A stretch of 64,000 bases of DNA from Clostridia bacterium. GTDB lineage: Bacteria; Bacillota; Clostridia; TANB77; CAG-508. The position numbers were made by a program, and so were the translations under genes. The notes beneath the pieces are model-generated. The model was given only the letters and a program-made list of their open reading frames with translations. It had not been told where the DNA came from and did not search any database. The stretch lies in the NCBI GenBank assembly GCA_017437145.1, contig JAFSBT010000002.1, positions 22,855 through 86,854 on the forward strand, given 5' to 3'. Of the stretch, positions 1,130 through 27,840 are shown piece by piece (position 1 is the first letter of the stretch; each line of letters starts with the position of its first letter).

Positions 1130-1245
1130 TTTTATGAAAAACTTCGTCTTGCGTTGTTATTTTAAATACAAAAAATGCTCAATGTACCTTTGTACATCTC
1201 CGCTTTTTTGATTTAAAATGCCTAGCAATACTTGTTTTTGATAAA
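1130..1245. repeat. AAACGAA...TTCGTTT MITE-like element (copy lacking extreme ends), immediately 3' of rpsG stop
   Basis: About 95% identical to 27719-27840 over about 110 bp. Confidence 0.75.
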
Positions 1246-1262
1246 AATTTGAATTGAAAAGT

Positions 1263-1290
1263 GTAGGGGCGACCATTGATCGTCCGCAAA
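1263..1290. repeat. TGTAGGGG-family GC-rich palindromic element (half copy)
   Basis: tgtaggggcgaccattgatcgtccgc. Confidence 0.7.
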
Positions 1291-1323
1291 TGAAGAAAAA
1301 TAAAAAATAGAGAGGAGAAAATT

Positions 1324-3408
1324 ATGGCAGGTAGAGCATTTCCGTTAGAAAGAACAAGGAATATAGGAATAATGGCTCACATCGATGCAGGAAAAACAAC
1401 TACTACAGAGAGAATTCTTTTCTATACAGGTGTTAACCACAAAATAGGTGAAACTCACGAAGGTGAAGCAACAATGGACTGGATGGCACAAGAGCAAGAA
1501 AGAGGTATAACAATTACTTCTGCTGCAACAACATGTCAATGGTTAAACCATAGAATAAACATCATCGATACTCCTGGTCACGTTGACTTTACAGTTGAAG
1601 TTGAAAGATCTTTAAGAGTATTAGATGGTTCTGTTACAGTATTTTGTGCAAAAGGTGGAGTTCAACCTCAATCAGAAACTGTTTGGAGACAAGCAGATAA
1701 ATATGGTGTTCCAAGAATGGCATATGTAAATAAAATGGATACTACAGGAGCAGATTTCTTTGCTTGTGTAAACCAAATGAGAGATAGATTAAATGCAAAT
1801 GCAATTCCAGTAGAAATACCAGTAGGAGCTGAAGATACTTTTGCAGGAATAGTTGATTTGATAAAAATGAAAGCATTCATCCATAAAGATGATTTAGGAA
1901 AAGTTATTGAAGAAACAGATATTCCAGCAGAATTAATTGAAACAGCAGAAAAATATAGAAGTGAAATGATAGAAGCAGCTGCAGAACAAGATGATGAATT
2001 AATGATGAAATATCTTGATGAAGGAGAATTGTCAGAAGAAGAAATCAAAAAAGGTTTAAGACTAGGAACATTAGCTAACAAAATAGTTCCAGTTTGCTGT
2101 GGTTCATCATATAAAAACAAAGGTGTTCAAGAATTATTAAACTACATTGTAGAATTCATGCCATCACCATTAGATATACCAGATATAAAAGGTATTACAT
2201 TAGATGGAGAAGAAACAGAAAGAAAAACTTCTGATACAGAACCTTTCGCAGCTTTAGCATTTAAAATTGCAACAGACCCATTCGTTGGAAAATTATGTTT
2301 CTTTAGAGTATATTCAGGAACATTAGAATCAGGTTCAACAGTATTAAATGCTAACAAAGATAAAAAAGAAAGAATCGGAAGAATTCTTCAAATGCATGCT
2401 AACCACAGAGAAGATATAGACAAAGTTTATGCTGGAGATATTGCAGCAGCAGTTGGATTAAAAGAAGTTACAACAGGAGATACATTATGCGACATTCAAC
2501 ATCCAGTTATATTAGAATCTATGGAATTCCCAGAGCCAGTTATCGAAATAGCTATTGAGCCAAAAGATAAAGTAGCTCAAGAAAAAATGGGTATAGCACT
2601 TGCAAAATTAGCAGAAGAAGATCCAACATTCAAAACATATACAAACCATGAAACAGGTCAAACTATCATTGCAGGTATGGGAGAATTACACTTAGATATC
2701 ATCGTAGATAGATTAAAAAGAGAATTCAAAGTAGAATGTAATGTAGGTAAACCACAAGTTTCTTACAAAGAAACAATCAGAAACAAAGTAAGAGTTGAAG
2801 GAAAATTCATCCGTCAATCTGGTGGACGTGGACAATACGGACACGTATGGCTAGAAATGGAACCATTAGAGCCAGGTACAGGAATTCAATTCGAAAGCAA
2901 AATCGTTGGTGGTGTTGTTCCTAAAGAATACGTTAAACCAACAGAAGAAGGAATTCGTGAAGCTGCTGAAAGTGGTATCTTAGCTGGATATCCAGTTATA
3001 GACTTCAAAGCAACTTTAGTAGATGGTTCTTACCATGATGTTGACTCTTCTGAAATGGCGTTCAAAATTGCTGGTTCAATGGCATTCAAAGAAGGATGTA
3101 GACAAGGTAAAGCAGTAATTCTAGAACCTATTATGAAAGTTGAAGTAACAGTTCCTGAAGAATATATGGGAGATGTTATAGGAGACGTTAACTCAAGACG
3201 TGGAAGAATGGAAGGAATGGAAGCTAGAAGTGGAATGCAAATAATAAGAGCATTCATCCCATTATCAGACATGTTTGGTTATGCAACAGACTTACGTTCA
3301 AAAACACAAGGTAGAGGAACATATTCTATGGAACCAAGCCATTATGAAGAAGTTCCTAAATCTGTACTTGAAAAGATAGTAGCAGCTAGAACAAAGAAAG
3401 AAGACTAA
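1324..3408 (+). CDS. fusA: elongation factor G
   Basis: 694 aa, GTPase motifs [21 protein letters not shown]; str-operon context. Confidence 0.97.
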
Positions 3409-3414
3409 ATTTAA

Positions 3415-3536
3415 AAACGAATGAAATTGCGCATCTTGCGTTGTCAAACATCATAAAAATTTTTTCGATATACACACGTATAATCTCAAAAATTTTTACT
3501 CGTTTTCCTAGCAATATACACAATTTGCTTCGTTTT
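3415..3536. repeat. AAACGAA...TTCGTTT MITE-like element, 3' of fusA stop
   Basis: aaacgaatgaaattgcgcatcttgcgttgtcaaaca...ttactcgttttcc...gcttcgtttt; about 85% identical to 27237-27358. Confidence 0.75.
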
Positions 3537-3554
3537 AGGATAAAATCAAAGAAA

Positions 3555-3580
3555 TGTAGGGGCGGGTCCTGTGTCCGCCC
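3555..3580. repeat. TGTAGGGG-family element (half copy)
   Basis: tgtaggggcgggtcctgtgtccgccc, stem GGGCGG/CCGCCC. Confidence 0.7.
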
Positions 3581-3616
3581 AACAATACCATTTCGAAATT
3601 AAAAACAAAAAAGGTA

Positions 3617-3645
3617 TTGCAAAAAAATGCCAAATGTTATAAAAT
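3617..3645 (+). promoter_or_regulatory. sigma-A-type promoter for tuf
   Basis: TTGCAA-17 nt-TAAAAT about 110 nt upstream of tuf. Confidence 0.5.
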
Positions 3646-26073: not shown

Positions 26074-26142
26074 CTGGTCATAAAATTACTCTTTTATTAT
26101 ACCACATTTTACATAAAATTTCAAATTTCATAAAAATGCATG

Positions 26143-26184
26143 AAAAAAGCGTGGCTCCGACTACGGACTAATCCACGCTTTTTC
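26143..26184 (-). terminator. terminator for minus-strand islet gene 26195..26497
   Basis: aaaaagcgtgg...ccacgcttttt. Confidence 0.55.
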
Positions 26185-26194
26185 ATTTGGTCAA

Positions 26195-26497
26195 TTATAA
26201 TGCTGCAAACTCCTCCGGAGTCATAACTGCATTAGATGAGGGGTCGGATTTTGCAGGTGAAACATACTTAAGAGCTTCCAACTGTTCAGGAGTCAGGTCT
26301 TTGCAAGCCTGTTCATAAGCTTCATTCCAGCCTTTCTCATCAAAAGGTTCTCTGATACGAGGCTGGTGAGCAAGTGCTTTTTTGTCCTTTTTCACCTTTT
26401 TTGCTTTTTTTGCTTTACCATCGTTAAATTCAATAAAGCTTTCTTCCACCCGACGGTTTTCTCTCGCATCTGTGACCATTTTGTGAAGAGTTCCCAC
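26195..26497 (-). CDS. hypothetical basic protein in GC-rich foreign islet
   Basis: About 100 aa starting GTG after AAGGAGGAG RBS; in-frame CGG = Arg; terminator downstream. Confidence 0.45.
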   Translation of the reverse strand: MGTLHKMVTDARENRRVEESFIEFNDGKAKKAKKVKKDKKALAHQPRIREPFDEKGWNEAYEQACKDLTPEQLEALKYVSPAKSDPSSNAVMTPEEFAAL

Positions 26498-26657
26498 AGA
26501 AACTCCTCCTTTCTTTTTGATATGAAATTTTTGCGACGAAAATATTATAACACATAAATTACAAATTTTCAAATTTAGGCTTAACTTACCTTGACTTTTA
26601 AAGTATTTAGATATATATTAAATTTGTTAAAATAGAATTTAAGAGAGGAGATAAAAG

Positions 26658-27236
26658 ATGAGTGACTTAATTGAAATTAGATGGCATGGACGTGGGGGTC
26701 AAGGTGCAAAAACAGCATCATTACTTTTAGCTGATGCAGCATTTAACACAGGAAAGTATATACAAGGATTCCCTGAATATGGACCAGAAAGAATGGGAGC
26801 TCCAATTACAGCCTATAACAGAATAAGTGACAAACCAATTACAATACATAGCAATATTTACGAACCAAATTATGTAGTTGTAGTGGACGATTCTCTATTA
26901 GAAAGTGTTGATGTAACAGCAGGACTAAAAAAAGAAGGTGCTATTGTTATAAACTCAACAAAAGATGCAGAAGAAATAAAAAAATACTTAAAAGGATATG
27001 AAGGGGAAATTTATAAAATAGATGCAAGAAAAATATCTATAGAAGCTTTAGGAAAGTATTTTCCTAATACACCAATGCTTGCAGCAATAGTAAAAGTAAG
27101 TAAGGTTATGACAGATGAAGAATTTTTAGATGATATGAAAGGTTCTTTTAAACATAAATTTGCTAAGAAACCAGAGGTTATAGATGGGAATATGAAGGCG
27201 TTAGAATTGGCTTTAAACTCTGTAGAGAGAATTTAA
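26658..27236 (+). CDS. porG: pyruvate:ferredoxin oxidoreductase gamma subunit
   Basis: 192 aa, HGRGGQGA motif. Confidence 0.85.
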   Translation: MSDLIEIRWHGRGGQGAKTASLLLADAAFNTGKYIQGFPEYGPERMGAPITAYNRISDKPITIHSNIYEPNYVVVVDDSLLESVDVTAGLKKEGAIVINSTKDAEEIKKYLKGYEGEIYKIDARKISIEALGKYFPNTPMLAAIVKVSKVMTDEEFLDDMKGSFKHKFAKKPEVIDGNMKALELALNSVERI

Positions 27237-27358
27237 AACGAATGAAATTAGGCATCTTGCGGTGTCAAACTTCTTAAAAATTTTTTCGATGTACCTTATG
27301 TACTATCTCAAAAATTTTTACTCGTTTTCCTTGCAATATACCTAATTTGCTTCGTTTT
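27237..27358. repeat. AAACGAA...TTCGTTT MITE-like element abutting porG stop codon
   Basis: Starts at the A of TAA stop; TIR aaacgaa/ttcgttt. Confidence 0.75.
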
Positions 27359-27436
27359 TACATATTAAATAATGGAATTTACCAAAATCTAAATTCCAAA
27401 ATCCAAATTCAAAATAATAACGAAAGGAGAATAAGA

Positions 27437-27718
27437 ATGAATATAAATTCAACAACACCTATGAATGAATTAACACCAGGTGGAGATATATATGAAGCTG
27501 GAAATGCAAGAGAATTTAAAACTGGAGATTGGAGAAGTACAAAACCATTTTTCTTATCAGAAAAATGTAAACAATGTGGACTATGTTTTCCTGTTTGTCC
27601 AGATGATGCAATTCCAGTAGGAAAAGACCAAAAGAGAACAGATTTTAATTATGATTATTGTAAAGGATGCGGGGTTTGTGCGAAGGTTTGTCCGTTTGGC
27701 GCAATCGAAATGCAATAA
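27437..27718 (+). CDS. porD: pyruvate:ferredoxin oxidoreductase delta subunit (ferredoxin-like)
   Basis: Two Cys clusters CKQCGLCFPVCP, CKGCGVCAKVCP; start at ATG with AAAGGAGA RBS rather than ORF-track 27347. Confidence 0.85.
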   Translation: MNINSTTPMNELTPGGDIYEAGNAREFKTGDWRSTKPFFLSEKCKQCGLCFPVCPDDAIPVGKDQKRTDFNYDYCKGCGVCAKVCPFGAIEMQ

Positions 27719-27840
27719 AACGAATGAAAAACTTCGTCTTGCGTTGTTATTTTAAATACAAAAAATGCTCAACGTACCTCAGTACGCCTCCGCTTTTTTG
27801 ATTTAAAATGCCTAGCAATACTCGTTTTTGATTCGTTTTA
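27719..27840. repeat. AAACGAA...TTCGTTT MITE-like element abutting porD stop codon
   Basis: taa-aacgaatgaaaaacttcgtcttgcg...gtttttgattcgtttt. Confidence 0.75.

Follow-up and report, generated by a model that had tools for sequence, protein, structure and literature searches.

A family of long palindromic hairpins between genes of housekeeping operons in uncultured gut Clostridia

Results

Palindromic repeats in the window

This study concerns a 64-kb stretch of contig JAFSBT010000002.1 from the Clostridia bacterium assembly GCA_017437145.1 (hereafter the window; G+C, 28%) and a palindromic repeat of approximately 115–125 nt that recurs in it, mostly between genes for the translation apparatus and for the Por proteins. 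The lineage of the window is also represented by contigs from ENA and Logan and by the sister strain GCA_015056485.1 (L124). An earlier sequence-only reading of the window had described four copies of a family resembling miniature inverted-repeat transposable elements (MITEs), placed after the stop codons of rpsG, fusA, porG, and porD. A profile of these four copies was used to rescan the whole window on both strands. All four proved to be real (nhmmer E-values from 1e-21 to 1e-24, all on the plus strand), and a fifth copy, c5, which had been overlooked, was found on the minus strand. Nothing else in the window matched the profile, and the family therein thus comprises five copies (Table 1). 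The upstream genes had been named correctly, as they encode S7, EF-G, POR gamma, and a Fer4 delta subunit according to Pfam annotations of matching contigs. The two proposed subfamilies were also recovered, with 86% identity between c1 and c4 and 89–92% identity between c2 and c3; the mean column identity of the four aligned copies is 70%. The interior of c4 is similar to that of c1, and its outer stem is similar to those of c2 and c3.

The boundaries of the copies required revision. A start at the last A of the TAA stop codon applies to c1 only; c3 and c4 also start within the stop codon, at other bases, and c2 starts shortly after it. The AAACGAA/TTCGTTT termini bound c2, c3, and c4, and the outer stems of c1 and c5 are different. 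An element of the type TGTAGGGG, which had been thought to follow every copy, follows c1 (GTAGGGG at 1263) and c2 (3556), and the one nearest to c3 and c4 is at 29143.

Fold and covariation

Fold prediction of the full unit gave one long imperfect hairpin of approximately 55 pairs for each copy, a feature that had escaped the sequence-only reading. The RNA folds of c1–c4 have energies from -27.5 to -38 kcal/mol, with z scores from -4.6 to -7.7, and the complementary strand of the copies folds no worse than the given strand. Four sequence blocks are conserved: ATGAAAA close to the 5' end, CGTCTTGCGTTGTYAA, CCTAGCAATA, and, close to the 3' end, TTTTGAT or TTTTGCT. The ATGAAAA block pairs with the TTTTGAT block in an A/U stem around a fixed G.G mismatch, and an asymmetric internal loop (CUUGC-GUUGU / CCUA-GCAA), also conserved, arises from the two middle blocks. 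The apical stem is variable. The fixed mismatches (G.G and C.A) and the asymmetric loop are maintained across more than 200 copies. In contrast, the outermost 8–12 bp vary between copies and yet are complementary inside each copy (for example, AAAACGAAT/ATTCGTTTT, GGTTGTTCAAA/TTTGAACAACC, TAAGACAAAT/ATTTGTCTTA, and TAATTAGCA/TGCTAATTA). Therefore, AAACGAA/TTCGTTT is one version of the outer stem and not a signature of the family. Length variants also occur (Table 1): the apical part is extended in the long ones (approximately 186 nt) and deleted in the short ones (approximately 83–97 nt), and the conserved lower stem is retained in all of them.

Two sets of loci, stretches of 8–20 kb amounting to approximately 0.9 Mb, were searched for relatives. 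The first set was collected from genomes with a loose pattern and contained 120 loci, of which approximately 75% were chance matches and about a quarter were true relatives. The second, independent set was collected from metagenome contigs with a stricter pattern; it comprised at least 120 loci, and 118 of the 120 listed loci had profile matches. Both scans demanded an intact 5' motif. MAFFT combined with RNAalifold alone missed the outer stems owing to a one-column register shift between the subfamilies; the covariance model was built from 48 copies with a hand-drawn structure. This model found 56 copies in 295 kb of the genome loci and 162 copies in 585 kb of the listed metagenome loci. The sequence-only reading had named a lack of further copies as grounds for refutation, and more than 200 copies were found.

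Both sets display strong covariation. In the genome set, 84.2% of the cells are in standard pairs, compared to 35–49% when the partners are slid by 1–3 columns, and 41 of the 42 pairs vary on both sides. Compensatory cells number 459, against 139 ± 11 in shuffled alignments, and none of the 500 shuffles reached 459. The independent metagenome set gave equivalent results: 83.0% of the cells are paired (33–51% when slid), and there are 1026 compensatory cells against 306. The structure is what the family conserves.

Except for one locus, the hosts in the first set are gut metagenome-assembled genomes (MAGs) labelled as uncultured Clostridia or Clostridium, including Clostridium sp. CAG:508, and the host samples are of human, mouse, rabbit, sheep, and ruminant origin. 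The exception (L017) is a MAG labelled Candidatus Peregrinibacteria that bears a clear copy (Table 1), due either to contamination of the bin or to transfer outside the Clostridia. Viral contigs scanned with the stricter pattern gave no matches, and a phage origin was rejected on this basis. Searches of a paper library with the sequence blocks retrieved only unrelated chance matches, such as primers, and searches by keywords retrieved no description of such an element. Within the reach of these searches, the family has no earlier description; it is large and spread over many species of uncultured gut Clostridia, an extent that the sequence-only reading did not recognise.

Placement relative to genes

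The preference for the 3' ends of genes, on which the sequence-only reading had laid weight, is strong. In the genome set, 40 of 55 copies (approximately 73%) are co-oriented with both neighbouring genes and start 0–10 nt past the upstream stop codon. Among 127 non-redundant copies of the independent set, 89 are forward and 33 reversed, an orientation bias of approximately 3:1, and 74 are co-oriented with both neighbours. The starting points of 79 of the 89 forward copies lie between -5 and +9 nt from the end of the stop codon. The outer stem takes in the stop codon, often together with 2–5 preceding coding bases. As for the reversed copies, the ATGAAAA end lies no more than 40 nt from the start of the downstream gene in 28 of 33 cases, abutting its Shine-Dalgarno sequence. 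The TTTTGAT end is 19–365 nt away from the next gene. At equal sequence scores, forward copies fold more stably than reversed ones, with medians of -32.4 and -23.1 kcal/mol, respectively (p = 4e-8).

The reversed copy c5 separates a Shine-Dalgarno sequence from the likely start codon of topA, a placement that the tight self-folding of the element would explain. The folded c5 leaves 9 nt between the base of the hairpin and the ATG at 8933. c5 may thus represent a split Shine-Dalgarno sequence, in which only the folded hairpin would bring GGAGG to approximately 10 nt from the ATG of topA. The public gene call places the start of topA at 8900, inside c5; this start is probably miscalled, and the ATG at 8933, giving MSDRLVIVESPAKA, is the likelier one. 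An empty-site allele of c5 was sought, and all contigs with the neighbouring DUF6514 protein share one arrangement. A look-up with EF-Tu for comparison alleles returned the same strain only.

Housekeeping operons, above all those of ribosomal proteins, are strongly preferred, which the sequence-only reading had also overlooked. In the independent set, one of 37 housekeeping proteins is encoded next to 87 of the 127 copies (69%). The junctions that recur across species, as judged from Pfam annotations, are S12|S7|EF-G|EF-Tu, L29|S17|L14|L24, L5|S14|S8, L6|L18, L23|L2, L11|L1, L35, IF2|RbfA, ClpP|ClpX, GrpE|DnaK, PheS|PheT, LysS, SecY|Adk, NifU-like|GGGtGRT, and PorG|PorD|PorA. Copies occupy five junctions of the S10/spc region inside a 3.2-kb stretch in Clostridium sp. 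CAG:508 (L107). Since the scans were blind to location, the bias is real.

Gain, loss, and target sites

The copies form a dispersed family of small, non-coding palindromic elements, polymorphic for presence both among sister strains and among species at a given gene junction. In three contigs with a copy (L124, L126, and L127), the rpsL|rpsG spacer measures 339 nt, and in the window and in L125, which lack the copy, it measures 213 nt, although the S7 proteins are identical; the difference is 126 nt. Across species, the same junction is empty (a spacer of 17–46 nt containing only the stop codon, the Shine-Dalgarno sequence, and the ATG), filled, occupied by the other subfamily, doubled, or inverted. 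The slot after fusA contains c2 and a REP-like element in the window, whereas in L124 it contains an unrelated long hairpin (GAAGTGAGAAGTG.../...CACTTCACACCTC); the following flank matches over 204 nt except for three substitutions and one 1-nt indel. The alternative hairpin in L124, GAAGTGAGAAGTGAGAAGTGGGAAGTG...CACTTCACACCTCACACCTCGCACTTC, lies at approximately 8750–8850 and corresponds to 3409–3585 of the window. The slot acts like an exchangeable hairpin cassette. Paired copies, in tandem or head to head, were found at the junction L23|L2, after L35, and at S12|S7 (Table 1), which suggests repeated hits on one slot or local duplication.

No fixed-length target duplication emerged: the longest repeat shared by the two flanks averages 3.73 nt, against 3.36 ± 0.08 nt in mismatched controls, with no preferred length, and a comparison of filled and empty rpsL|rpsG alleles gave no clean duplication. 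Split matches to the element in the approximately 0.9 Mb of loci were only hairpins with longer apical parts, and none had an open reading frame (ORF) between its halves.

Candidate functions encoded in the repeat

The sequence-only reading had also suggested that the conserved blocks might encode a small RNA or an outward promoter with a tataat-like box. Neither suggestion found support. Promoter-like sites number 13, against 10.4 ± 3.6 in shuffled sequences, which is not above chance, and a TTGACA-15-TATAAT arrangement on the minus strand occurs only in ATTATAA variants, independently of orientation. The promoter scan and Rfam scans gave no evidence of a free-standing small RNA: Rfam 15 at gathering thresholds returned only the glmS ribozyme in the whole window, and a permissive scan of 27200–27900 up to E = 10 returned no matches. 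A small ORF starting from the conserved ATG was rejected, as the peptide would range from 8 to more than 40 codons, the first and second codon positions vary, one-base indels occur, and the ATG is swapped for ATT, ACA, or other triplets in approximately 20% of the copies. By-eye checks of the conserved loop showed that its sequences do not fit attC, K-turn, or loop-E motifs.

Other repeats and features in the window

The window contains 18 copies of GTAGGGG followed by a GC-rich palindrome (e.g. TGTAGGGGCGAACTGTGTTCGCCCGC), against 1.4 expected, and 16 of them are on the plus strand. These palindromes adjoin only two of the five hairpin copies. This family (TGTAGGGG) is REP-like and separate from the hairpin family, and it looks like a classical REP with a GTAG head. 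Its association with the hairpin copies is therefore coincidental, and a RAYT-type transposase may exist in the genome. An 81-nt repeat (98% identity between its two copies) is a palindrome of the REP-like family, GTAGGGGCGACCA...TGGTCGTCC, with a loop insert of approximately 50 nt. A composite AT-rich repeat of approximately 146 nt with hairpins of its own (TAAGCTAAAATATTAATTTTTGAAAAT...) is a third family of intergenic repeats, and a REP-like element precedes at least two of its three copies (those at 6718 and 30280). A CA-rich motif (CCAACTACCAAATTCAAAA-like) is found repeatedly a short way before gene starts, one instance being in the stretch from c3 to porD, and could be a leader or a translation-enhancer-like sequence.

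Table 1. Positions of the hairpin copies, of their variants in other contigs, and of further features
Feature	Sequence	Position	Strand	Location and structure	Score and RNA fold
c1	Window	1126–1250	+	Between rpsG (S7) and fusA; pairing starts at the final A of the rpsG TAA (1124–1126); outer stem AAATTTTTAT/ATAAAAATTT; also found in the sister strain L124	E 1.8e-21; 109 bits; -33.9 kcal/mol, z -7.2
c2	Window	3414–3536	+	Between fusA and tuf; begins 5 nt past the fusA TAA (3406–3408); outer stem AAAACGAA/TTCGTTTT	E 1.2e-22; 129 bits; -27.5 kcal/mol, z -4.6
c3	Window	27235–27358	+	Between porG and porD; stem from the second base of the porG TAA (27234–27236); present in same-species contigs L121–L123	122 bits; -33.7 kcal/mol, z -7.7
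c4	Window	27716–27840	+	Between porD and porA; stem from the T of the porD TAA (27716–27718)	E 1.2e-24; 119 bits; -38 kcal/mol, z -7.5
c5	Window	8800–8923	-	Inverted relative to the flanking genes; between GGAGG (8795–8799) and the likely topA ATG (8933–8935); outer stem AGGCAG.AAT/ATT.CTGCCT	E 1.2e-17 and 3.3e-21 (two profile searches); 104 bits; plus strand -37.3 kcal/mol, z -5.5
topA start region	Window	8795–8935		Public gene call carries Toprim/Topoisom_bac annotation	
Long variants (examples)	L181	7578–7763		Apical part extended	
	L188	1877–2062		Apical part extended	
Further length variants	L093	688–770			
	L187	4369–4465			
	L220	9232–9327			
	L191, L201, L203, L227, L228, L139				
Copy in Candidatus Peregrinibacteria MAG	L017	6120–6254		43% G+C; GC-rich compensated apical stem	87.6 bits
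Paired copies	L103	5128–5529			
	L117	5468–5842			
	L197	733–1004			
	L032	1723–1984			
	L051	7116–7380			
GTAGGGG sites (among the 18)	Window	1263, 3556, 5043, 6655, 8739, 13828, 15419, 21197, 29143, 30218, 42438			
81-nt repeat	Window	11004–11084, 35721–35801			
Composite AT-rich repeat	Window	6718–6863, 11123–11268, 30280–30425			
CA-rich motif	Window	5090–5135, 6854–6899, 27371–27416, 30425–30470			
glmS ribozyme (RF00234)	Window	40347–40503		Upstream of ORF 40557–42380	94.7 bits
Lys/Glu-rich low-complexity repeats	Window	34315–34521		In ORF 33946–34524, matching the MinE family PF03776 on contig L122	

Discussion

Comparison with known repeats

The element resembles the interspersed palindromic repeats ERIC, REPIN, Correia, RUP, and BOX, and it does not fit the classes against which it was tested, namely classical MITEs, REPINs, attC sites, intrinsic terminators, and the Rfam families. 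It is set apart by its copy-specific outer stem including the stop codon, by the polarity of its placement, and by its concentration in operons of the translation apparatus. ERIC (or IRU) sequences of Enterobacteriaceae and Vibrio are imperfect palindromes of approximately 127 bp that lie in transcribed intergenic regions, by stop codons or ribosome-binding sites, in either orientation; they are non-coding, vary in copy number between strains, and have a conserved central inverted repeat. We know of no agent that moves ERIC, nor of a concentration of ERIC in ribosomal-protein operons or a start at the stop codon. The likeness is one of architecture only, in the nearly equal length, the single long imperfect hairpin, the intergenic position, the strain-variable copy number, and the absence of coding. 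We know of no sequence relationship to ERIC, and the present element differs in its clostridial host, which belongs to another phylum, and in its copy-specific outermost stem.

Correia (NEMIS) elements of Neisseria and the RUP and BOX elements of Streptococcus pneumoniae are 100–150 bp long and co-transcribed, and their RNA hairpins affect the processing or stability of mRNA. Correia hairpins are cut by RNase III, and these elements are present or absent depending on the strain; in Correia and RUP the terminal inverted repeats are conserved and a TA is duplicated, and BOX is modular. Our element is similar to them in size, strain polymorphism, and position in operons; to our knowledge, none of the three follows a stop-codon rule or favours ribosomal operons. 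REP (BIME) sequences of E. coli are GC-rich, approximately 35 nt long, and stabilise mRNA 3' ends, and those within 15 nt of a stop codon reportedly affect translation of the upstream gene. With them, the element shares a stable hairpin just past the stop codon within an operon, plausibly a barrier to 3' exonucleases and able to meet the terminating ribosome; it differs in being approximately 125 nt long and AT-rich and in having a conserved asymmetric loop. The attC sites of integrons are another parallel, as they are imperfect palindromes of 57–141 bp at or over the upstream stop codon, in which structure prevails over sequence and one strand folds better. The present family, however, lacks RYYYAAC/GTTRRRY core sites and has an interior of strongly conserved sequence, the neighbours are essential housekeeping operons rather than cassettes, and the examined loci offer no integrase context.

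REPINs, which are moved by RAYTs, are hairpins of approximately 100 nt with conserved blocks and a variable part, in which compensatory changes are common (PMC3116915). They have neither classical terminal repeats nor target duplications, are proposed to move as single-stranded hairpins, and are long-lived in a lineage (PMC3116915). The long hairpin with compensatory changes is a feature that our element has in common with them. A REPIN, however, consists of two short self-palindromic terminal REPs with a GTAG-type head and a variable spacer between them (PMC3116915), whereas the conserved blocks of the present element are in mid-stem or subterminal, are not self-palindromic, and have no GTAG head. 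As it contains no GTAG-headed REP doublet, the element is not a REPIN as defined in that work (PMC3116915).

A mobile hairpin in operon mRNA

We lean, with restrained confidence, towards the interpretation that the element is a new non-autonomous mobile palindromic intergenic repeat, which is co-transcribed in operon mRNAs and whose hairpin would act at the RNA level. The family itself, its fold and covariation, the placement rule, the bias towards housekeeping operons, and the turnover are well supported. The copies sit inside what appear to be transcription units, usually from the upstream stop codon and in the sense of the genes, and would therefore be transcribed within the operon mRNA. 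Their spread would depend on structure, possibly with a single-stranded hairpin as the intermediate, as for REP/RAYT or IS200, and probably not on a cut-and-paste transposase recognising terminal repeats. By analogy with REP, ERIC, and Correia hairpins, the folded element might serve in the mRNA as a compact barrier, or as a processing site, where the upstream cistron ends; highly expressed operons would then tolerate insertions and might even profit from them. The orientation bias, the exact placement at stop codons, the more stable folds of forward copies, and the geometry of c5 argue for constraint at the RNA level, and the data on this point are mixed.

Several results weigh against this interpretation. 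One-sided changes to G.U are rare (26 among 2277 cells, compared to 459 double changes), and A.C-type mismatches outnumber G.U-type mismatches in forward copies (175 and 118, respectively). This ratio does not flip with orientation (0.40 versus 0.49, p = 0.29), and for 47 of 50 copies the better fold is that of the strand opposite to the mRNA. The wobble test thus does not support selection on the sense RNA. Transcription, and any effect of the hairpin in RNA, we infer from position alone. The polarity by which the 5' end is the one placed, and the inclusion of host coding bases in the outer stem, are left unexplained by the model. The 8–20-kb loci, in which no dedicated search for RAYTs was made, yielded neither a mobilising enzyme nor an autonomous partner nor an intermediate of transposition. 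Furthermore, the requirement of both scans for an intact 5' motif may have inflated the bias towards housekeeping operons.

Weighing the alternatives

The same results lend themselves to an alternative that we regard as the strongest of the competitors, though on the whole unlikely: the element would be a selfish or neutral DNA palindrome without a role in RNA, of which only those copies that fold as single-stranded DNA propagate. Template switching during replication would correct one arm against the other and extend the palindrome into the flank, and the bias towards highly expressed operons would reflect targeting of DNA that is often single-stranded. The scarcity of one-sided intermediates relative to double changes, a wobble bias independent of the direction of transcription, and the better folding of the non-mRNA strand all agree with this explanation, as do the tandem and head-to-head copies and the lack of a fixed target duplication, which is also a property of single-strand transposition of the HUH type. 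The outer stems, which hold the stop codon and the last coding bases, argue in the same direction: many 3' arms are complementary to coding bases of the host and must therefore have arisen at the site itself, which by analogy may point to a process at the DNA level, for example the extension of imperfect palindromes on a template, or their correction, as in quasipalindrome mutagenesis. Unrestrained correction of the arms, however, would erase the G.G and C.A mismatches and the asymmetric loop, and their persistence in more than 200 copies indicates that the arms are not simply copied from each other. The far greater stability of forward copies at equal sequence score is also difficult to reconcile with a purely selfish palindrome, the stop-codon placement and the orientation bias of approximately 3:1 require an extra assumption, and the different hairpin in the same slot of the sister strain hints that a hairpin is favoured there. 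An immobile alternative, which seems to us improbable, is a vertically inherited cis-acting RNA of housekeeping operons, possibly a processing site of the RNase III type or a binding site for a dedicated protein, with the loop as the recognition site. It would account for the filling of the same junctions in distant species (S7|EF-G, L23|L2, and GrpE|DnaK, with a GrpE 65–74% identical to that of the reference copy), for outer stems that differ by compensated changes, for the constant orientation at each junction, for the strong conservation of the asymmetric loop, and for the extreme housekeeping bias. Vertical inheritance is, however, contradicted by sister strains that have identical S7 proteins and differ in the presence of a copy, by the many orthologous junctions that are empty in related species, and by the other subfamilies, duplicates, and inverted copies at the same junction. 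In addition, one copy lies between a Shine-Dalgarno sequence and a start codon, and approximately a quarter of the copies are inverted and would present the complementary loop in RNA.

The MITE-like label given by the sequence-only reading was apt in that the elements are small, non-coding, multi-copy, and polymorphic, and inapt in that it implies conserved termini and a fixed target duplication, neither of which was found. A classical MITE would be a deletion derivative of an insertion sequence (IS) moved by a DDE transposase via terminal inverted repeats, with duplication of a TA-like target. The small, dispersed, non-coding copies with presence/absence polymorphism and inverted-repeat ends are compatible with such an origin, and approximately 37% of the outer stems start with T, usually followed by A, which gives TA...TA-like ends. 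The 5' TA is nevertheless accounted for by the host stop codon, the outermost 8–12 bp differ between copies while being complementary within each, the flank repeats have no fixed length, and the split matches in the approximately 0.9 Mb of loci had no ORF between their halves. Without conserved termini and a fixed duplication, the element is not a classical MITE, and we hold this origin to be quite improbable. Least credible of all is that the hairpins are duplicated or convergent intrinsic terminators or attenuators. They do lie just past stop codons, and many of their 3' arms end in TTTT; this T run, however, pairs with the 5' A run in the AT-rich base of the stem, so that the GC-rich stem followed by an unpaired U run of an intrinsic terminator is missing. 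Neither c1 nor c2 gave a signal in a terminator scan, the cistrons on either side of the copies have to be co-transcribed (rpsG-fusA, porG-porD-porA, and the S10 and spc operons), and inverted copies exist.

Implications

Few parts of bacterial genomes are as compact and as conserved as the ribosomal-protein operons, and here, in uncultured but widespread gut bacteria, up to five of their junctions in 3.2 kb carry a hairpin of 120 nt. The element is likely to add to assembly breaks and to errors in gene starts, as illustrated by the topA start called inside c5, and in either case it offers a ready marker for strain typing. If it is merely parasitic, it would be a clear example of a mobile element that persists in essential mRNAs because it folds itself aside, and it would show that covariation can arise outside RNA genes, a caution for searches for structured RNAs in metagenomes. 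Should the mobile hairpin instead have an effect on the mRNA, highly expressed operons would possess in it a general signal that sets the ends and the stability of their cistrons. A further possibility, attractive and still doubtful, is that the element is an RNA punctuation module spread by its own mobility, in which the hairpin at the stop codon shows its asymmetric loop to a dedicated nuclease or RNA-binding protein; this would explain the different hairpin in the slot of the sister strain. In that event, this host factor would determine where the cistrons of ribosomal-protein and other housekeeping operons end, how stable they are, or how they are coupled, and a domesticated mobile element would serve as a general post-transcriptional signal in a whole order of gut Clostridia.

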